DNA of 64,000 nucleotides from Escherichia coli (GTDB lineage: Bacteria; Pseudomonadota; Gammaproteobacteria; Enterobacterales; Enterobacteriaceae): assembly GCF_002854065.1 (NCBI RefSeq), contig NZ_CP024147.1. One strand, given 5' to 3'. The notes beneath the pieces were generated by a model that saw nothing but the letters and a program-made list of their open reading frames with translations, was not told the DNA's origin and did not search any database. Numbering within the stretch: the first letter of the stretch is position 1; each line of letters starts with the position of its first letter. Made by a program: the position numbers and the translations under genes. Below, one piece after another: positions 2,756 through 10,105 of the stretch.

Positions 2756-3673
2756 ATGTTGCATTACGATATGATCCGCTATGAAATAATGTACCTAAAA
2801 ACGCTGGACAGGCATTTCAATACAGATCACTCGTTACTGTGCAGTACTTATGATAGGCCCGATGATTTTCGACGCTTGATCTCTCAGATACTTGAACGGC
2901 ATTTTCTTGGCGATCAGGACAGAATCAAAATTGCGCGGAAAACACTTAAAGAATGGGCTGACCTGCAACTGATTGATAAAGAATATTTTGATTGTTTCAA
3001 AGGCACACCAAGAGCATCGTGGTTTGCTCACCATTATATTTTTGAATACCCAGTATTACCTGCAGGGTTGAAACTTGGTGGGTTGGGGAATGACGTCGGT
3101 TGTTCAGGTGGTTTTAATTCTCTTTTAATGAACGATAATATCTTCACAAATCTTGATTTCTCTAATTTGAATATCGACCTGGACGATATAGATTGGGACC
3201 TGATAACAAATCCACAGGCCACTGCTTCGAAAAAAACGAAACGCGTTTTCTCCCGATTTTATCTGAACGCGGGAGCAAGTACCGATCTGTACAACCCCAC
3301 TCCGGTAACTGAGCGTGAACTCATCAATGGTGTGATGAGGTACATTGATGAAGCACCATGCTCACTTGGAGATAAGATCACTTATTTCAAAAAACTGCAT
3401 GAGCGCTGGCTTGAGCAATATGATTTTTTTCTAACAGATTTTGACTGGATGTCACGTGATGATGAAACTCAGTTAGTATATCTCTGGGACTATCTCAAAG
3501 GAAAGGGACGAATAGCGAGCTATCTTCGCCCTTATAATACGTCTATGCGTTATGACATGATTATTGCGGCTATGGATGTGTGGAACGCCCAACCTGAAGA
3601 GAAGCTGGAGTTTATTGAGAAGATGAAACATGCCTGGCAGGCAGCGAAATCTTACCGGAAATCTGCTAAATAG
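2756..3673 (+). CDS. hypothetical protein, 305 aa, no family recognised
   Basis: Strong SD (GAGGGAGGAG) upstream of the ATG. This is the only long ORF in the region. It is AT-rich and has an acidic, low-complexity centre (DFSNLNIDLDDIDWDL). Two similar helical segments occur: KTLKEWADLQLIDKEYFDCF and KKLHERWLEQYDFFLTDF. Confidence 0.7.
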   Translation: MLHYDMIRYEIMYLKTLDRHFNTDHSLLCSTYDRPDDFRRLISQILERHFLGDQDRIKIARKTLKEWADLQLIDKEYFDCFKGTPRASWFAHHYIFEYPVLPAGLKLGGLGNDVGCSGGFNSLLMNDNIFTNLDFSNLNIDLDDIDWDLITNPQATASKKTKRVFSRFYLNAGASTDLYNPTPVTERELINGVMRYIDEAPCSLGDKITYFKKLHERWLEQYDFFLTDFDWMSRDDETQLVYLWDYLKGKGRIASYLRPYNTSMRYDMIIAAMDVWNAQPEEKLEFIEKMKHAWQAAKSYRKSAK

Positions 3674-4035
3674 CGTTGTGATCGCAGTGATGTCTTGGTC
3701 TGATTTCTCAATGTAGTCATGAATCTGAGTCGACCCAGGGTCCTCTAACTATCTTTTCCTTGTCCCGTTAGGTACAAGCACATACTGTTAAAGATTAATA
3801 TGGCGGGGTATGGACGTCGGAGCTATGCCTACCTTTTAGATCGTTTGCTTCTGACTCGAAGCTTACAAGCTAGCTGATCTGAAGGTCCACTGTGAGCGAG
3901 GAGCGGACACCACGACTCACCAATAACTTGCTGCCCGCTTACGACCCAAAACCACCTATTGTATGTTAATTAATCTAGCAAACAAATGTTTAGCTTTTTA
4001 TCCGGCGAATGAAGCAAGAGAAATTGAACCCATTG

Positions 4036-4512
4036 CTAAGTATTACTGGGATTATTAAAAGGGATAATACTGGCCAATCCGTCATCTACATCAAGACCAT
4101 AGGCAACTGCTATTTCTGCCACAGAGGTACCACACTTTTTTCGCAGTTTAAAAAGCGCTCGCTCAAGCATAGATACTTGCACAGGATGATCAAATCGGAT
4201 GAACTGAGGGGAGCCAACACTGTCACCGAATTCTTGGCATGCCTTTCTCATTTTCCTTAATTGATTTGCTAAATATGAATCGCTCGGTAAACCTTGTAGG
4301 ATTTTAGTCAATTCAGATCTAATGCTGATAACACTCTGAATGCAATGACTAGTATCCTCCATATCGACAGGATTGAAAAGAACTCGCTTGTCCTCAAGAA
4401 AAATGACGATCTTCTTCGCTTCGTCAGCTTCTATTATTGGAGCATTCCACTGAATCCCGAATATAGGGCAGCTAAGGCCTGTAATATTTTTATAGATTCG
4501 TTCAAATTTCAA
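4036..4512 (-). CDS. hypothetical protein, 158 aa, no family recognised
   Basis: TTG start preceded by AAGGAG at a 6-nt spacing. It is the longest ORF of the region, is AT-rich, and converges on the 305-aa gene. Confidence 0.6.
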   Translation of the reverse strand: MKFERIYKNITGLSCPIFGIQWNAPIIEADEAKKIVIFLEDKRVLFNPVDMEDTSHCIQSVISIRSELTKILQGLPSDSYLANQLRKMRKACQEFGDSVGSPQFIRFDHPVQVSMLERALFKLRKKCGTSVAEIAVAYGLDVDDGLASIIPFNNPSNT

Positions 4513-4684
4513 AACTCACTCCTTTGATGGACACATAACGCCTATACAGTCATGATGAGAAACGGACTCGGTTCGAGTAATCTGTTAGATAGCATCACTC
4601 GTAACTACTGTAAAAATAGTTGCTATCATGCTTATTGTCACTATAAATATTACTTAATGTCAGTCAGTTAAGAACGATTATTAT

Positions 4685-4721
4685 CCCCCACAATATAAAA
4701 TGTGTGTGGGGGCTATTTTTT
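4685..4721 (+). terminator. intrinsic-terminator-like hairpin with its T-run on the + strand
   Basis: CCCCCACA (4685-4692) pairs with TGTGGGGG (4705-4712) across a 12-nt loop, followed by CTATTTTTT. On the - strand the hairpin is followed only by ATAATAATCG. Confidence 0.5.
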
Positions 4722-4738
4722 CCAAGAGGTAGGCTTCA

Positions 4739-4951
4739 TCAAAGATAAACTACATGAGAAGAACGCCTTAACTTGCTCAAATGGATTGTGTTACAACAGT
4801 CTTGGTAACGTTTGCTATTGGCACATAGCGGGTCTTCAACCCAGTTAGCTCGCCCATTCTGTGCAAGTAGTGGACAATGAATGAAAAGATATTGGGTCGG
4901 ATTAACCTTGCGAAGGCCATCTAAGTCTGTGACGAACATTTCTTCAAGCAT
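4739..4951 (-). CDS. small hypothetical Cys/His-containing protein (70 aa), possibly spurious or a gene remnant
   Basis: ORF lies 134 nt downstream of the helicase gene on the same strand. TGAGGG sits 8 nt upstream of the ATG. Sequence contains HCP...C...CC..H. No family recognised. Confidence 0.3.
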   Translation of the reverse strand: MLEEMFVTDLDGLRKVNPTQYLFIHCPLLAQNGRANWVEDPLCANSKRYQDCCNTIHLSKLRRSSHVVYL

Positions 4952-5085
4952 CTGAGGCCCTCAGCTCGCACCTAGAATTTTAATTTTGATGCATTTTGCC
5001 TTAGCTTGAGCATTGGAATGTGGCCTGATAACCGGTGTTTTCTTTTACTGGCCGTCCACAGACTCGATGACGCATTTATTCCCGA

Positions 5086-6903
5086 CTACCTTAAACCTGC
5101 CCCTCTCATTCGCTCCTCCAGTTCATCCAGAAATGGGGAACGCCCTAGACGCATAGGGCCGTAGCGACCATCAACAAAACCGGAATACAGCATATGCACC
5201 TCGTCCCGTGCGCGGGTCAGCCCCACATAGAAAAGACGTCGGCTTTCACGCAGCTTCTCTGGCGTCTCATTACGCCACGGCAAATTCCCCAGATCTAAGC
5301 CGACCATGATAACCACGTCATATTCGCAACCTTTGGCTGAGTGAAGTGTCAGCAAATTGAGGTGCTCAGGTGAACCGTCACGACCACCTAGGCTCGTGAT
5401 ATCCAACATCGCTAACGCACCGCCTTCGGCAAGTGCTGCAGTCATGCGATCTAGTTGCTCAGCCTGATCAGAAAGCGTTGGTTCAGTTGCCAGCAGGGAA
5501 TCAACGAGACCGTTGCGCAACGACGCGACAAAATCGGATGCAGAATGTTGGTCGGCACGAAGTGCCCAAAGTAGCCTGGTTAACTCCTGCCCCTTACTCC
5601 GGGCGCATGCATCATCCAGCCTTGCCCGATGAAATGCCAGATAACGGTCTATAAGTCCGCGCAGTTGAGGGCGCCCGATACGCCAACCGCCAGCACACCA
5701 TGCTGCGCAATCCTCCACCCAGCTCGTCAAGGCAACTTTGCGATAAGGTGCTGCGGTATCCACACGAATGTAATCAAAACCGCTAGCTGTCACCGCATCG
5801 GCCACAACATCGCCGGCACGGTAGTCCTTGTACAGAATGGCGATATCACCCAGTGTTCGGCCCGGCTTAGCAGCCAACGCAGCAGGAATAATCTGCTCGA
5901 CAGCATAGACAGCCTGATCCCCCAAGCCATCCGGACACAGCTGGAACGCAATGGTTGTCTGGCGGTTTGGGTCGTTTGCGCGATAACCACGAACCTCACC
6001 CAACACCATCTCCGATGCATTCACGATGTCCGCTCCTGATCTATAGTTCAACTGGAGCCGGACTGTTTCAACGTCTCTCCTGCCTGCCAGTTCTAGTAGT
6101 AACGCACCATCGGCACCAGTGAAACCGTAAATAGATTGGTCTGCATCACCCACTGCAAATAAGCGTACGCCTCCCTCGAAAGCCAGACGTTTGACCATAC
6201 GATGGAGTGCCACGCCCAAATCTTGATATTCATCTACCGCAAGGATCGGAAATTTCGCCTGTACTAGGGGCAGAACCCAATCATGCTCAATTATCAGACG
6301 CTGACCAAATATCACCATATCGTCGTAGTCTATCAGCCCTTGCTGCCGCAATGCAGCTTCGTAGGCCTCGGCCCATGCAGCGAGTTCCTCCTCTGTACGC
6401 CAGGCAACGCTGTTGCGATTCAACACCGAACGGCGATGCCGTCCGAGATCAATAGCCTTATAGGGATGGTTTGCGCCAAAGAGACGGTCACCAGATTGTC
6501 GAAGTAACCGTTCGCTCTCGCGCTGAGACGCTACTGACAGCGGAAATGGGATTGGCAGATCGGCCAGTCGCCCATAGGGCATCAACAGATGGCGCAAGCA
6601 GAACCCATGAACGGTTCCAATAAAGAGATTCGGTGCCTCTCTAAGCCCCAGCGCTTCGAGACGACGGGTTAGCTCGCGTGCGCATTCTTGGCTATATGTG
6701 ATACATGCCGCACCACGTGGAGCTTGAACATCCTCAGCTAGGATTCGTGCCAGCTTCAGCACAAGCGTCTTTGTCTTACCACTCCCCGGGCCCGCGAGCA
6801 CCACGCAGTGTCCCTGGGAGTGATACGCGGATAACTGGCCCGGATTCCCGGCCAGCTCGGCAGCCTGAGCTAAGTAGGCTGCACTGACACTACGTGACGG
6901 CAT
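5086..6903 (-). CDS. gajB: UvrD/Rep-family SF1 helicase, GajB-like (Gabija component B)
   Basis: Walker A AGPGSGKTKT, motif II VDEYQD, motif III GDADQSIYGFTGA, LNYRS, LHSAKGCEYD, and VGLTRARDEV. The ATG at 6903 overlaps the end of the upstream OLD-family gene by 14 nt. Confidence 0.85.
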   Translation of the reverse strand: MPSRSVSAAYLAQAAELAGNPGQLSAYHSQGHCVVLAGPGSGKTKTLVLKLARILAEDVQAPRGAACITYSQECARELTRRLEALGLREAPNLFIGTVHGFCLRHLLMPYGRLADLPIPFPLSVASQRESERLLRQSGDRLFGANHPYKAIDLGRHRRSVLNRNSVAWRTEEELAAWAEAYEAALRQQGLIDYDDMVIFGQRLIIEHDWVLPLVQAKFPILAVDEYQDLGVALHRMVKRLAFEGGVRLFAVGDADQSIYGFTGADGALLLELAGRRDVETVRLQLNYRSGADIVNASEMVLGEVRGYRANDPNRQTTIAFQLCPDGLGDQAVYAVEQIIPAALAAKPGRTLGDIAILYKDYRAGDVVADAVTASGFDYIRVDTAAPYRKVALTSWVEDCAAWCAGGWRIGRPQLRGLIDRYLAFHRARLDDACARSKGQELTRLLWALRADQHSASDFVASLRNGLVDSLLATEPTLSDQAEQLDRMTAALAEGGALAMLDITSLGGRDGSPEHLNLLTLHSAKGCEYDVVIMVGLDLGNLPWRNETPEKLRESRRLFYVGLTRARDEVHMLYSGFVDGRYGPMRLGRSPFLDELEERMRGAGLR

Positions 6904-8674
6904 CGCAGATATACTCCAGTGCTTCACGAATGTAATCCGGGCATACATCCTCCGACACCGAGGGTGCCAGCGCTTGGGCGAACCGCCCTTTGCCAATTCG
7001 CTCAATCAGTTTCAACAACCGGACATTATCAAGCTGGTCCGTGTCATCCACCCACGCCTGTATCCTGTTCAGAGTAGCTCGTCTAGGAGACAATTCCTGC
7101 TCGATAACCAACTTCATGGCTTCGCCCAGTCCACCGGTAAACAGCTCTGGCTCCAGAGTGGTCTCATTGACGAAGCATCCAAAATCTCCGGCACGTGCAA
7201 TCACCTCCTCGGTAGTCATATCATCATGATCAACATCGCTCTCAAGCACGTCTAAGATATTGATAAATCTCTTACGAACCAGCGGCTCTCCATCCTCCTC
7301 AGGATCGCGGTCTGTCAGAATCACATGTGGAATATTGAGTCCCCGCGGCCCTAGGAGCTTCACATACGGAGTGAAATTTGTTCCACCGATCGAGCACACC
7401 GTGATCCCAAGCATATCTAGGGGAATATTAAGAGCATCAGCGAATGCTGGGACAAGAAAGCGTTCAGCATCCCCTTCCACCAAGATCACCCCACGTGAAA
7501 AGAATATTTCGCCGCGAGTGACATCGATATAGCGCTGCAGATCATCTTCGTCCCGCGGCGTAAACGGTGCGTTTGCCGTTGAAACCGCAATCGTCTTCCC
7601 TCCCTCCGGATCATGGCGCAGCAAAACGATGGATCTGATTGGTGTGACGCTGGCGATATGCGGGGAATGGGTGGTCAGGATCGTTGTCAACGGTGTTCCT
7701 TCATCACCATTGTCTCCGTCAGTCCCTAGGAAATAACGGTAAACCAGGCGCTGTACGTGCGGATGTAGGTGCGCTTCCGGCTCCTCGACTACGAAAAACG
7801 TATGGTCTCGTTCTCCGTCATTAACAAGACGATCAAGTTCGAGGCTTTTTAGGGCAAGAAAAATCAGATTAGCTGTCCCCAGACTGGCATCGCCAATGCC
7901 ACGAATGCCACTATCAAGCAGCAAACGCAGGCTACGTAGCAGCGCATCAACGCGAGTCGGTGCAAGTCCGAGCGATACCGGAACGGCATGTTGCTCACCT
8001 GCGATAGCTATCAACCTTTCGCTAATTCGTTCGGCTGTCGCTGCCACCTCATCATGATCAGCCAGTTCCCGTTGAGCCTCATCAACTTGGGTTTGAATCT
8101 CCTCACGAGTCTCGTCGTCCAGAGATGCGGACAGTTCTTCAATAAGCGGTCTTAAGGGTGAATTACGCCAGCTTGAAAGGTCCTTCTCGGCATCACGCAA
8201 CGCGCCTTGAACATCAATGGGCAACATACGGCGAAAGGCACCACCAATATGCATGTCAGGATCAGCTCCACCGAAGATCACATACTCATAATCTTTTAAC
8301 GATTCAGGAGCTCGATTTAACGCGGTTTTGGGCTGAAAGCGGTAGGTAAGACGGGCCACCATCGGAGGCCCCGGATTTAGGACACAGTCATTCAGATGAG
8401 CCATCAATCGGGGATCGTCAGTGAACTCAGTAAGATCCACTGAAATTTCGATGGTCTCCCCCAGTTTGTCTTCGCCCAATCCATCCCAAAAATGTTCAAA
8501 ACCCAGTTGACGGTCACGCTCAGACAACCCTGGGTCAAGAATCAGCTGCAGGCCGCGAATAAAATTGCTCTTGCCAACCTTGTTTTCACCAACAATAACA
8601 ATACTCTCACCCGTTTCAACATCAACATCGGAGAAGTTGGCGAAATTAATTAACCGGATTCGGGAAATCCGCAT
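6890..8674 (-). CDS. gajA: OLD-family ATPase + TOPRIM nuclease, GajA-like (Gabija component A)
   Basis: N-terminal Walker A GENKVGKSN and Walker B/D-loop FFVVEEPEAHLHP. C-terminal TOPRIM signature VILVEGDAERF plus ILTDRDPEED. AGGGAGG SD is present. It is paired with a UvrD-like helicase, as in class 2 OLD/Gabija loci. Confidence 0.85.
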   Translation of the reverse strand: MRISRIRLINFANFSDVDVETGESIVIVGENKVGKSNFIRGLQLILDPGLSERDRQLGFEHFWDGLGEDKLGETIEISVDLTEFTDDPRLMAHLNDCVLNPGPPMVARLTYRFQPKTALNRAPESLKDYEYVIFGGADPDMHIGGAFRRMLPIDVQGALRDAEKDLSSWRNSPLRPLIEELSASLDDETREEIQTQVDEAQRELADHDEVAATAERISERLIAIAGEQHAVPVSLGLAPTRVDALLRSLRLLLDSGIRGIGDASLGTANLIFLALKSLELDRLVNDGERDHTFFVVEEPEAHLHPHVQRLVYRYFLGTDGDNGDEGTPLTTILTTHSPHIASVTPIRSIVLLRHDPEGGKTIAVSTANAPFTPRDEDDLQRYIDVTRGEIFFSRGVILVEGDAERFLVPAFADALNIPLDMLGITVCSIGGTNFTPYVKLLGPRGLNIPHVILTDRDPEEDGEPLVRKRFINILDVLESDVDHDDMTTEEVIARAGDFGCFVNETTLEPELFTGGLGEAMKLVIEQELSPRRATLNRIQAWVDDTDQLDNVRLLKLIERIGKGRFAQALAPSVSEDVCPDYIREALEYICDAVT

Positions 8675-9173
8675 TACTGCCTCCCTATCTTTTTAATTAT
8701 CTTCCCAAAATAAGAGTAGAACTCAAACCACAAGAGACTGCCTGGCACGACCAAATTTGCTGAGGGATACGGTTGCGATCAGAACGGTACTTGGTCATTG
8801 CACATTTTTTACTGTTCAAATCTATGCGTCCAACGAAGGTAACAACCTATCGTAACAGAGAGCTAAAACATGCCTATGATCCATCTCACATAGTGGCTGT
8901 TTGTCGTCACAGTCTTACAATGCACTCTGTGCAATGCATTACTCCCATTGGCCGACCAGACCGATGAACTGGCACGGCGGTGTGCTTCACACACTCTAGC
9001 GATACGGCACAATATCAACAGACACTGACTGGCCTCGTCAAAATAGTACAGTACAGACTTAGCACCGTCTGACTTTGGCGCTAAGCGGAGATCTTTCAGT
9101 CTTGGACTGCACAAAGTCCTTTGCGTTAATCTAAAATTCCAAATAATTTCAGACAGATATTATCTCATTGAAT

Positions 9174-9210
9174 CCCCGCCTTCCTGACTGGATCGCGGGG
9201 TTTTTAATTT
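9174..9210 (+). terminator. intrinsic-terminator-like hairpin immediately upstream of the GTPase gene
   Basis: CCCCGC (9174-9179) pairs with GCGGGG (9195-9200) across a 15-nt loop, followed by TTTTTAATTTTT. It ends 20 nt before the ATG at 9230. Confidence 0.5.
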
Positions 9211-9229
9211 TTCACGCTGAGACTTCTGT

Positions 9230-10105
9230 ATGAATAAACCTGACGGCCTTCAGGCCTTTGAACAACCGCTTGCGTCGCTTCCGTGCACACTTCGCCAGCT
9301 TATTCTTGAACGTATCCAGAACCTGACCCATTACGAGCCGGTGATTGGAATCATGGGCAAAAGTGGTACAGGTAAATCCTCTCTCTGCAACGAACTTTTC
9401 CGGGGCGAGGTGTCCCCGGTGAGTGACGTGAATGCCTGTACTCGCGACGTGCTGCGTTTCCGGTTACGCAGTGGGCGTCACAGCCTGGTGATTGTTGATT
9501 TACCGGGCGTGGGCGAAAACGGGCAGCGGGATCAAGAATACCGTGCCCTGTACCGTCGAATCCTGCCGGAGCTGGACCTGGTGCTGTGGGTCATTAAGGC
9601 CGATGATCGGGCACTAACCGTGGACGAGCAGTTCTGGCACGGTGTGATGCAAACTTACAGGCAAAAGGTACTGTTCGTGATTAACCAGGCCGACAAAATC
9701 GAACCCTGCCATGAATGGGATACCCTCACCAGCAAACCTTCACCGCACCAACTGGGAAATCTTAAAGCGAAGCAGGCTGCGATTATGGTGATGTTTAAAC
9801 CGCATCATCCGGTCTGTGTGGTGTCAGCCCGCACTGGATGGGGCATTGAGGAGATGGTGGCAGCCATGATGCGCTGTCTGCCTGACCGCGCCACCAGCCC
9901 GGTGGTGACACAACTGCACAGGAAACTCTGCACAGAGCCGGTAAAGTCGCAGGCTCGTGACAGTTTCGGTGAAGCTGTGGGCCGGGTTTTCGATACCGCA
10001 GAATCATCTTCGTTCCTGTCTACATCGCTGAAAACGGTGATTCGTAGCGTGCGTGATGCGGTGGTGTCGGTCGCACGGGCCGTCTGGGACTGGATATTCT
10101 TCTGA
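9230..10105 (+). CDS. YeeP/YfjP/YkfA-family GTPase (CP4-type island)
   Basis: G1 GKSGTGKSS, G3 DLPGVGE and G4 NQADK motifs. Overall resemblance to the K-12 prophage GTPases YfjP/YkfA. Confidence 0.85.
   Translation: MNKPDGLQAFEQPLASLPCTLRQLILERIQNLTHYEPVIGIMGKSGTGKSSLCNELFRGEVSPVSDVNACTRDVLRFRLRSGRHSLVIVDLPGVGENGQRDQEYRALYRRILPELDLVLWVIKADDRALTVDEQFWHGVMQTYRQKVLFVINQADKIEPCHEWDTLTSKPSPHQLGNLKAKQAAIMVMFKPHHPVCVVSARTGWGIEEMVAAMMRCLPDRATSPVVTQLHRKLCTEPVKSQARDSFGEAVGRVFDTAESSSFLSTSLKTVIRSVRDAVVSVARAVWDWIFF

Follow-up and report, generated by a model that had tools for sequence, protein, structure and literature searches.

Genes and borders of the interval

The interval described here lies within a 64-kb stretch of DNA, referred to below as the window. 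It contains three ORFs, which are found exactly where an earlier note on this DNA had placed them: a 305-aa gene with an ATG start on the + strand (2756-3673), a 158-aa gene with a TTG start on the - strand (4036-4512) and a 70-aa ORF, also on the - strand (4739-4951). On the left, the 305-aa gene adjoins a YagK/YfjJ-like gene (1772-2350, - strand). On the right lies a Gabija module on the - strand (4813-9070), with gajB at 5086-6903 according to the RefSeq annotation, gajA at 6890-8674 and flanks of its own. GajA and GajB were recognized by PADLOC, and the borders of the module were derived from locus L021 and other Gabija strains (loci used for comparison carry L numbers).

The earlier note assigned all three ORFs, together with Gabija, to one cargo slot. 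The 305-aa gene does not belong there. Homology to L002, L003 and L015, which is ~90% in the 3' tail that follows this gene (3674-3909), ends at 3907-3909 and resumes at 9076-9077, where the right backbone begins (9076-10105, + strand) with a YeeP/YfjP-type GTPase gene (9230-10105). Because the backbone homology reaches ~3909, the slot proper extends from ~3910 to 9075 and the 305-aa gene is outside it.

The contrast in base composition that had been pointed out is real: the GC contents of the 305-aa gene, the 158-aa gene and the 70-aa ORF are 41.5%, 39.8% and 42.3%, compared with 55.1% for gajB and 51.1% for gajA. The further suggestion, that these sequences were acquired separately from Gabija, is backed by the module borders. 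At other Gabija loci, homology to the window starts only at 4988 (or 4813), and on this sequence comparison gajAB travels without the three ORFs, which do not belong to the Gabija system. The family scans that had been recommended gave a Pfam match for the 158-aa protein, discussed below, and placed neither of the other two: the 305-aa and 70-aa proteins had no match in scans of Pfam, PADLOC, PHROGs and NCBIfam. PADLOC returned no match for any of the three ORFs.

The 305-aa gene and its control region

A YagK/YfjJ (Rep-like) gene divergently adjoins the 305-aa gene in Escherichia, Morganella, Yersinia and Budvicia. This position is conserved irrespective of cargo at nine loci in five genera, and also in one remote, ~18%-identical relative that bears a ribbon-helix-helix (RHH) domain. 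Downstream of the 305-aa homologues the cargo differs from locus to locus, and in Yersinia the GTPase gene follows the homologue directly, so that the slot is empty. Judged by this synteny, the 305-aa gene is part of the backbone of a family of integrative islands with the order AlpA / YagK-YfjJ / ... / GTPase, and flanks the slot. It is under purifying selection, with dN/dS values of 0.09-0.30.

The predicted structure, a confident two-domain model, consists of helical domains at residues 1-105 and 180-305 and a basic C-terminal tail. The acidic, low-complexity center noted previously corresponds to a disordered linker (residues 110-172), and the two similar helical segments turned out to reflect a genuine internal domain duplication (hhalign 97%, E=1.9e-10, for the N-terminal against the C-terminal half of the family). 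The C-terminal domain is common to 102 relatives. When the wider family was compared with MatP, the two aligned over the helical region, the basic linker and the RHH (E=1.4e-3, hhalign 81%). In remote members the duplicated helical domain is succeeded by a MatP/CopG-type RHH, and some of them match the Pfam models RHH_1 and RepB-RCR_reg. A profile search of an index of 5.8 billion proteins gained one remote member only. The protein encoded in the window and its subfamily contain no RHH, their sequences ending at the basic linker. From synteny, profile comparison and the structure model, the 305-aa protein may be assigned to a MatP-like/RHH family, in a branch that has lost or never had the RHH.

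Between the YagK/YfjJ-like gene and the 305-aa gene is a divergent control region (2351-2755) that can be aligned across Escherichia, Morganella, Yersinia and Budvicia. Within it, a 33-bp block (2507-2539) is 100% identical to Yersinia, compared with 72-79% for the flanking genes. An iteron-like array follows on the + strand (2607-2677), in which seven nTCAG motifs start at 2607, 2618, 2629, 2640, 2651, 2662 and 2673, at an exact spacing of 11 bp. All seven are in phase, whereas none of 200 shuffles gave more than 4 and no other part of the window has more than 3. The array is conserved in L002, L003, L015, L018 and L013, where it precedes the homologous ATG by 147-167 bp, and its motifs are probably protein-binding sites, either of an operator or as origin iterons.

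We infer that the 305-aa protein helps to regulate or maintain the island, and that it would do so together with YfjJ at the conserved control region. It would either contact DNA through the helical domains and the basic C-terminal tail or bind a partner protein. The competing proposal gives the protein a role of its own in immunity, such as that of a death-fold/CARD-like adaptor or sensor, in place of island maintenance; we regard this as very improbable.

The 158-aa gene encodes a DUF6650 protein

The 158-aa protein had been described as unclassifiable. In fact it matches Pfam DUF6650 (PF20355) with E=1.1e-16 and 61.5 bits (cut-off 27), and phrog_29952 with E=1.5e-96 over residues 1-157, i.e. 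full length; RefSeq annotates the gene as encoding a DUF6650 family protein. Its homologues form 107 clusters, in all of which PF20355 was detected. The AAGGAG Shine-Dalgarno (SD) sequence and the TTG start reported for this gene are present, and 10 of 11 relatives, which represent different genera, have kept them. The dN/dS values are 0.08-0.35.

Nor is this domain any longer undescribed: a December 2025 preprint (bioRxiv 10.64898/2025.12.03.692087) presents DUF6650 as the domain of ThsG, the effector in type VI Thoeris, where 2'cADPR made upon infection sets off a growth arrest through the effector. The validated E. coli type VI effectors are of the type "DUF6650 and TM", and ThsG proteins without a transmembrane (TM) segment from Bacillus confer both defense and a growth arrest induced by 2'cADPR (bioRxiv 10.64898/2025.12.03.692087). 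The protein encoded in the window has no TM segment. Some 37 positions, each conserved in 85% or more of the DUF6650 family, are common to the members linked to a TIR gene, and almost all of these are intact in the 158-aa protein, which departs from the family consensus at positions 24 and 143. In the monomer model (pLDDT 79) the conserved residues R43, R65, R89 and R124, together with a conserved N-terminal loop of low confidence, are compatible with a ring such as the homo-hexameric tube of type VI Thoeris, in which basic pockets lie between protomers.

One possible precedent was considered and set aside. DefensePredictor DS-27 (WP_087896215.1), a SMEK domain-containing protein with a DUF6650-like C-terminus, gave an hhalign probability of only 0.2% against the family profile of the 158-aa protein. 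DS-27 is the sole validated TIR-less "DUF6650" system. Among the rows listed in the DefensePredictor tables, the accessions from the window are absent.

A single-gene cassette at several hotspots

The 158-aa gene is contained in a cassette of ~0.76 kb (3874-4634, - strand) that comprises a 3' tail, the gene with its SD and TTG start, and ~120 bp of upstream sequence. The borders recur in other elements: in a P2 prophage (L004) the shared segment corresponds to 3877-4629, in Pectobacterium (L027) to 3901-4634, and in an island riddled with insertion sequences (L111) to 3874-4634. In ~20 complete E. coli genomes the cassette is located in the tail-gene (Z/fun) hotspot of P2 prophages, with 83-90% DNA identity. 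The P2 Z/fun locus is a recognized defense hotspot (PMC9122126, PMC13586616); no mention of the DUF6650 cassette was found in the searched passages of these papers, and PADLOC has no model for it. At the border between backbone and cargo is a junction motif, CTGAAGGTCCACTGTGAGCGAGGAGCGGA (3879-3907), that is common to other hotspots. It occurs once in the window and in 126 of 5,426 E. coli genomes, always in an intergenic position between variable genes. A 61-bp shared element was also considered as an integrase relic and rejected, as no protein similarity was found.

Absence of a TIR partner

The usual partner of ThsG is a TIR protein, ThsB. The 158-aa gene is flanked by the 70-aa ORF and Gabija on one side and by the gene for the all-helical 305-aa protein on the other, none of which encodes a TIR protein, and no ORF of at least 60 aa in the 64-kb window matched a TIR HMM. 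Among ~74 distinct DUF6650 loci, only about three have a TIR gene within 6 kb (L063, L102, in which the match is weak, and L007/L030), so that ~96% are without one; TIRs were sought with Pfam, PADLOC and a home-made HMM, and very divergent ones, or any more than 6 kb away, would escape this search. Other genes near DUF6650 copies include those for AbiEii, MADS, PARIS and Toprim proteins, and no partner is conserved, 111 of 127 neighbors being singletons. A divergent 125-aa gene in the P2 context was rejected as a candidate partner: it is absent from the window and is unrelated to a 125-aa gene of Comamonas. The new aspect of this locus is that its DUF6650 copy, like most of its subfamily, is without a TIR partner. 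Any signal for its product would have to be made by another source, either a TIR protein encoded in trans or the phage, as the cassette itself includes no TIR gene.

It may be asked whether the 158-aa gene simply belongs to a type VI Thoeris system that has been split, as an ordinary ThsG gene whose ThsB partner is encoded elsewhere in the genome. Type VI Thoeris is present in E. coli S1 and ACN001, the family signature of DUF6650 is conserved, and a close (72%-identical) Pseudomonas copy is located two genes upstream of a ThsA_Macro/ThsB_TIR pair, in the same direction and in a putative operon. Against these points must be set the lack of a TIR in the 64-kb window and near the great majority of sampled loci, and the mobility of the cassette, which moves alone, with fixed borders, across unrelated elements and genera. 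A single mobile gene cannot count on a resident partner in every new host. A split system seems improbable.

By homology with ThsG, the 158-aa protein would form an oligomeric ring with basic pockets, bind 2'cADPR or a related small nucleotide signal, and halt the growth of the infected cell. A more general proposal, which we put forward tentatively and consider unlikely as it stands, is that short TIR-less DUF6650 proteins are widespread, autonomous, single-gene immune effectors gated by a ligand, or else sponges, that respond to cADPR-type signals, are carried on the ~0.76-kb cassette and are exchanged at the ~30-bp junction motif. In that reading they have spread through prophage and island hotspots and many phyla, the signals being supplied by other systems or by phages.

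A purely counter-defensive role deserves separate comment. Here the solo DUF6650 protein would have kept its pocket and lost the ability to kill, and would sequester 2'cADPR-type signals in the manner of Tad1/Tad2. The carrier, P2 prophage or island, would thereby be protected from Thoeris-type immunity. The absence of a TM segment and of a TIR partner, the retention of the residues common to TIR-linked relatives and the carriage of the cassette by P2 prophages all agree with such a sponge; moreover, the preprint calls the mechanism of toxicity of TM-less ThsG unclear, and 2'cADPR sponges exist (bioRxiv 10.64898/2025.12.03.692087). However, the TM-less ThsG proteins of Bacillus do defend and do arrest growth, and the loci that receive the cassette are known for defense cargo, with defense genes adjoining it in many phyla. 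Non-phage chromosomal islands carry the DUF6650 gene as well, and tblastn with the 158-aa protein found no match in 50,697 deposited phage genomes. We judge an exclusive sponge function to be a minor possibility. Whichever activity applies, the TIR-less ThsG-like cassette is the sole lead to defense or counter-defense in the interval. Of the three genes that the earlier note ranked as the best candidates for such functions, only the 158-aa gene remains one.

The 362-bp gap and the 70-aa ORF

The two larger genes converge on a 362-bp gap (3674-4035) that had attracted attention for its length. The gap is real, with stop codons in all six frames, and there is nothing unusual about it: it is composed of the 236-bp backbone tail described above and a cassette tail of ~130-160 bp, i.e. 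of two abutting 3' tails. It tolerates an IS66 insertion. Two other interpretations of the gap were rejected. As an RNA gene it has no Rfam match, and its folding z-scores are +0.6 and +0.3. As for a remnant of a lost DUF6650 partner, the genes that lie downstream as partners in Pseudomonas, Comamonas and Guyparkeria served as tblastn queries and gave no match. A scan for promoters and terminators performed no better than on shuffled sequences.

The DUF6650 cassette is joined to the Gabija module by unique filler DNA (4635-4812), for which no homology was found outside the six genomes that carry the whole block. The filler contains a hairpin followed by a T-run on the + strand (~4685-4721, read by eye), and a sub-threshold Rfam match to STnc210 lies at 4667-4778 (E=0.64). 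The 70-aa ORF, said to lie directly after gajB, in reality spans the junction between this filler and the 3' flank of Gabija. It has no RefSeq annotation, tblastn found no match to it in plasmids, and its exact sequence occurs only in the same block arrangement. In L021, the only divergent copy, the ATG has been lost, two 1-bp indels are present and homology ends at 4813. Most likely, the 70-aa ORF is not a gene, but a non-coding chance ORF. Together with the gap it may be viewed as recombination debris, in which abutting 3' tails, filler and a chimeric ORF would be the residue of exchanges.

The interval as a probable mosaic

As a whole, the most probable reading of the interval, to which we assign a probability of about 0.7, is that it is a mosaic of three independent pieces, namely a backbone gene, a solo DUF6650 cassette and debris, and not a three-gene system. 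The opposite view combines the 305-aa and 158-aa genes, and optionally the 70-aa ORF and the gap as well, into one new defense or toxin-antitoxin-like system that is co-resident with Gabija. The two genes are indeed adjacent, are alike in AT-richness and lie within a defense-rich island, and the exact block is frequent in draft assemblies (934 index blocks). Their distribution, however, already largely refutes this view. Co-occurrence had been proposed as a check, and the two genes are found together in only 6 of 5,426 complete E. coli genomes, in a single near-identical block. Each is far more common alone: in the same genomes the 305-aa half occurs apart in ~9 and the DUF6650 half in ~21. 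Further, the genes are convergent and their modules have separate borders, the 305-aa gene persists beside other cargo or none, IS66 between the two is tolerated, and no partner is conserved across DUF6650 loci. A single system would be highly improbable on these grounds.

Implications and comparison with known systems

If the interval is a mosaic, the hidden three-gene defense system dissolves, and the 305-aa gene and the 70-aa ORF should not be pursued as defense candidates. A mobile DUF6650 gene without a TIR raises the question of whether such genes are orphan effectors that answer signals in trans, autonomous abortive-infection genes, or sponges. The YagK/YfjJ islands, which are common in Enterobacterales and rich in defense genes, contain an uncharacterized conserved module made up of a Rep-like gene, an nTCAG array and a MatP-like duplicated protein, and this module offers a handle on the regulation or maintenance of these "cryptic prophage" islands. 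The slot borders (~3910-9075) and the junction motif can serve as landmarks for defining the cargo of related islands.

Several known systems invite comparison. Among RHH regulators, MatP can be aligned with the wider family of the 305-aa protein over the helical region, basic linker and RHH, RepB-RCR_reg is matched by some members, and like copG the 305-aa gene has a Rep-like gene and a control region with repeats beside it. The 158-aa protein resembles ThsG in being small and helical, in that PF20355 spans nearly its whole length, in the conserved arginines and the Gly/Pro/Phe/Trp loop that it shares with TIR-linked relatives, and in its location in defense hotspots. It differs in having no adjoining ThsB (TIR) gene, as do ~96% of its sampled relatives, in lacking the TM segment of the validated E. 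coli effectors, and in its mobility as a single-gene cassette. The rapid swapping and the near-identical modules shared across mobile elements that PMC9122126 and PMC13586616 describe for P2 Z/fun cargo match the behavior of this cassette, although in the window it resides beside Gabija in the slot of a chromosomal island and not in a phage.

A close parallel for the island is CP4-57 of K-12. The earlier note's description of this element was correct: its slot between yfjJ and yfjP contains abpB/abpA (yfjK/yfjL), yfjM and rnlAB. Both islands possess a variable, defense-rich slot between a YfjJ-family gene and a YfjP/YeeP-type GTPase gene, after which come DUF932, antirestriction, RadC and toxin-antitoxin genes. 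CP4-57 differs in that tblastn detects no homologue of the 305-aa gene there and in that its YfjJ is barely related to that of the window. The orientation differs as well: the alpA-yfjI-yfjJ unit of CP4-57 points into the slot, whereas its counterpart in the window points away from it.

Distribution and composition of the three ORFs

The three ORFs proposed in the earlier note as defence candidates beside Gabija had been placed exactly, at 2756-3673 (+ strand, 305 aa), 4036-4512 (- strand, 158 aa, TTG start) and 4739-4951 (- strand, 70 aa). What had been observed about them was largely accurate; their grouping and interpretation do not stand, and they resolve into one backbone gene, one probably spurious ORF and one gene of a domain family recently linked to Thoeris. 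All three are indeed more AT-rich than Gabija, with GC contents of 41.5%, 39.8% and 42.3%, respectively, against 55.1% for gajB and 51.1% for gajA, and the Gabija pair was verified by PADLOC (GajB, E=1e-258; GajA, E=1e-234). The statement that no family could be recognized holds for the 305-aa and 70-aa products, which gave no match in Pfam, PADLOC, PHROGs or NCBIfam, but not for the 158-aa product, which belongs to Pfam DUF6650.

Among 5,426 complete E. coli genomes, the whole block is present in 6, at 98-100% identity. The half containing the 305-aa gene is found alone in about 9 further genomes and the DUF6650 half alone in about 21, each at approximately 90% identity, so that the 305-aa and 158-aa genes mostly occur apart and the three genes do not move as a unit. 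In draft assemblies the exact 70-aa sequence is frequent (934 index blocks), and in all the places examined the order around it is GajA-GajB-70aa-DUF6650-305aa-YfjJ-AlpA. Because this arrangement is identical at each place, the block is best described as one lineage-specific unit. The same block is carried by Klebsiella pneumoniae ATCC 13883.

The 70-aa ORF is unannotated in RefSeq, has no plasmid match and spans the junction between filler sequence and the Gabija flank at 4812/4813. In its sole diverged copy, from another Gabija strain (L021), the ATG has disappeared, two 1-bp indels are present and the homology stops in the middle of the ORF. In view of these features and the lack of a family match, we take it to be a chance ORF formed in recombination debris and not a good defence candidate. 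Similar small remnants between genes have been described at P2/P4 hotspots (PMC13586616).

The 305-aa gene is island backbone

In every context read (E. coli W284, SE11, Morganella, Yersinia and Budvicia), the 305-aa gene is divergent from an adjoining YagK/YfjJ gene, with AlpA beyond, and a relative of only about 18% identity is also paired with YagK/YfjJ. Downstream, the content varies by locus, with either a DUF2971 protein or hypothetical proteins that are not the same from one locus to the next; in Yersinia no cargo follows the homologue and the GTPase gene begins 113 bp past its stop codon. The close relatives (63-93% identity) are unannotated, restricted to the Enterobacterales and nearly all exactly 305 aa long, and dN/dS is 0.09-0.30. 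The 305-aa gene is thus part of the island backbone. The earlier note had correctly described the K-12 CP4-57 slot; there, abpBA, yfjM and rnlAB lie between yfjJ and yfjP. This slot is analogous but has no homologue of the 305-aa gene.

An exhaustive search yielded 102 relatives, mostly of 280-330 aa, with a C-terminal domain in common. Their profile aligns to the helical region, basic linker and ribbon-helix-helix (RHH) of MatP (E=1.4e-3 PDB-wide, hhalign 81%), and several remote relatives match the Pfam models RHH_1 and RepB-RCR_reg. The window protein and its entire subfamily end at the basic linker, and the RHH is therefore missing. In the AlphaFold model (pLDDT 82, pTM 0.77), helical domains at residues 1-105 and 180-305 are separated by a disordered acidic linker. 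These domains are homologous to one another (hhalign 97%, E=1.9e-10), which accounts for the two similar helical segments noticed earlier.

The YagK/YfjJ-like gene and the 305-aa gene are separated by a divergent region of 405 bp with two conserved features. The first is a 33-bp block, CCCCTTAATTATACTAAAAACCCAAATGTTCAT (2507-2539), in which E. coli and Yersinia agree at 100% of positions, compared with 72-79% identity for the flanking genes. The second, at 2607-2677, is an array of seven nTCAG motifs with an exact spacing of 11 bp (the maximum in 200 shuffles was 4), kept in four other genera, among them Morganella, Yersinia and Budvicia, where its distance upstream from the homologous start codon is likewise 147-167 bp. 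We read the Rep-like gene, the candidate binding-site array and the MatP-like accessory protein as an island replication or regulation module. The 33-bp block also contains a -10-like TATACT and includes the ATG of a longer, 255-aa reading of the YfjJ ORF, of which RefSeq annotates only 192 aa.

To the left of AlpA, members of this island family have dynamin-like GTPase pairs and DUF6361 in Yersinia enterocolitica (L018-L020) and YjiT/YjiV-like giant helicase genes in Morganella (L015/L017). This defence-like cargo points to a second variable slot, located across the AlpA-YfjJ unit from the first. In the window, a DUF1062 zinc-ribbon protein (630-1238, Pfam E=4e-43) adjoins AlpA at the left edge of the island and is kept in SE11 and VTB96935v.

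Limits of the cargo slot and the convergent gap

The left backbone, comprising AlpA, the YfjJ-like gene, the 305-aa gene and a 236-bp tail, extends to about 3909, based on approximately 90% identity to E. coli W284, SE11 and Morganella. The DUF6650 cassette runs from 3874/3877/3901 to 4629/4634, and its borders are shared by P2 prophages (L004), an island full of IS elements (L111) and Pectobacterium (L027). It is followed by filler seen nowhere else (4635-4812), by the Gabija module (4813-9070, as in L021; in most other Gabija strains the match begins only at 4988) and by the right backbone from 9076, with its GTPase gene at 9230. These borders define a cargo slot of about 3910-9075, which places the 305-aa gene outside the slot to which it had been assigned.

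The 362-bp gap between the convergent genes (3674-4035) is real, with stops in all six frames, but it is not special, since it consists of two 3' tails placed end to end. An RNA gene in the gap was considered and rejected: there is no Rfam match, the folding energy is unremarkable (z-scores of +0.6 and +0.3), and the promoter and terminator scan, which found sites no more often than in shuffles, placed none within the gap. In CP024667.1 (L025), an IS66-family element with three ORFs (4987-7572) occupies the gap at the equivalent of 3996-4004, 32 bp beyond the stop codon of the DUF6650 gene, with a 9-bp stretch overlapping at both borders.

A 29-bp motif, CTGAAGGTCCACTGTGAGCGAGGAGCGGA (3879-3907), coincides exactly with the border between backbone and cargo and with the end of the DUF6650 cassette. 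Of the 5,426 E. coli genomes, 126 have one or two copies, always in an intergenic position with variable genes on both sides; these settings include a P2 Z/fun hotspot whose cargo is different and two further islands that bear an integrase. The motif may be the mark of a recombination junction. In the filler, a hairpin noticed by eye at about 4685-4721 (+ strand) has an 8-bp GC-rich stem, CCCCCACA ... TGTGGGGG, followed by CTATTTTTT. It is oriented as a + strand terminator, yet no + strand gene runs into it; the terminator scan did not list it, and a weak, sub-threshold Rfam match to STnc210 (4667-4778, E=0.64) overlaps it.

The 158-aa gene: a ThsG-like cassette on its own

The 158-aa protein had been called unclassifiable; it matches Pfam DUF6650 (E=1.1e-16) and, over its full length, phrog_29952 (E=1.5e-96), and is named a DUF6650 family protein in RefSeq. 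Its tight family (156-158 aa) extends across Proteobacteria, with more distant members in many phyla. About 37 positions that at least 85% of members conserve, among them four arginines and a Gly-Pro-Phe-Gly-Trp loop, are common to TIR-linked and solo members, and the window protein keeps almost all of them, deviating from the consensus at 24 and 143. For this gene dN/dS is 0.08-0.35. The AAGGAG and TTG start (4513-4532) are kept by 10 of 11 relatives drawn from different genera, spanning Enterobacterales, Pseudomonas, Achromobacter, Halomonadaceae, Comamonas and Guyparkeria; this non-ATG start is unusually stable.

The commonest E. coli setting of the DUF6650 gene is a P2-like prophage, where it is flanked by the tail-sheath and tail-fibre-assembly genes; this locus is a recognized accessory and defence hotspot (PMC13586616). 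There, a divergent 125-aa neighbour is hydrophobic and TM-like (L004 7941-8318, L005 7925-8302); the window lacks it, and no similarity between it and other DUF6650 neighbours could be detected. Across about 74 distinct related loci no conserved partner was found, 111 of 127 immediate neighbours being singletons, and the identifiable ones are frequently defence genes (AbiEii, MADS, PARIS AriA, ATPase-Toprim).

In type VI Thoeris, as defined in a preprint of December 2025, a TIR protein is combined with the DUF6650 effector ThsG and the signal is 2'cADPR; the predicted ThsG assembly is a hexameric tube that has basic pockets (bioRxiv 10.64898/2025.12.03.692087). Pfam TIR proteins comprise only 2 of the 127 neighbours, and no ThsB family is among the 25 PADLOC families listed for them. 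With HMMs built from the TIR sequences of that preprint, a TIR was detected within 6 kb of DUF6650 only in the loci L063 and L102 (weak) and in Pseudomonas spirodelae (L007/L030), and none in the 64-kb window. In P. spirodelae (6001-8821), the genes after a 72%-identical DUF6650 copy, co-directional and closely spaced, encode an unannotated TM-like protein of 243 aa, ThsA_Macro and ThsB_TIR. This position two genes upstream of the ThsA_Macro/ThsB_TIR pair links the subfamily to TIR signalling, and the locus is possibly a Thoeris operon that includes an additional DUF6650 effector.

The 158-aa gene, then, forms a ThsG-like cassette by itself. That it is half of a split system, served by a distant TIR, appears unlikely, and it is equally doubtful that the protein acts as a signal sponge. 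The best reading is that it would be a ligand-gated abortive-infection effector, now independent of a cis-encoded TIR. A domain family recently tied to Thoeris immunity is encountered here in an uncharacterised, TIR-less and cassette-like form. This subfamily is unrelated to DS-27 of DefensePredictor, a validated "DUF6650" system. The window protein, which has no TM segment, differs from the validated E. coli type VI effectors, described as "DUF6650 and TM", whereas those of Bacillus consist of DUF6650 alone (bioRxiv 10.64898/2025.12.03.692087).
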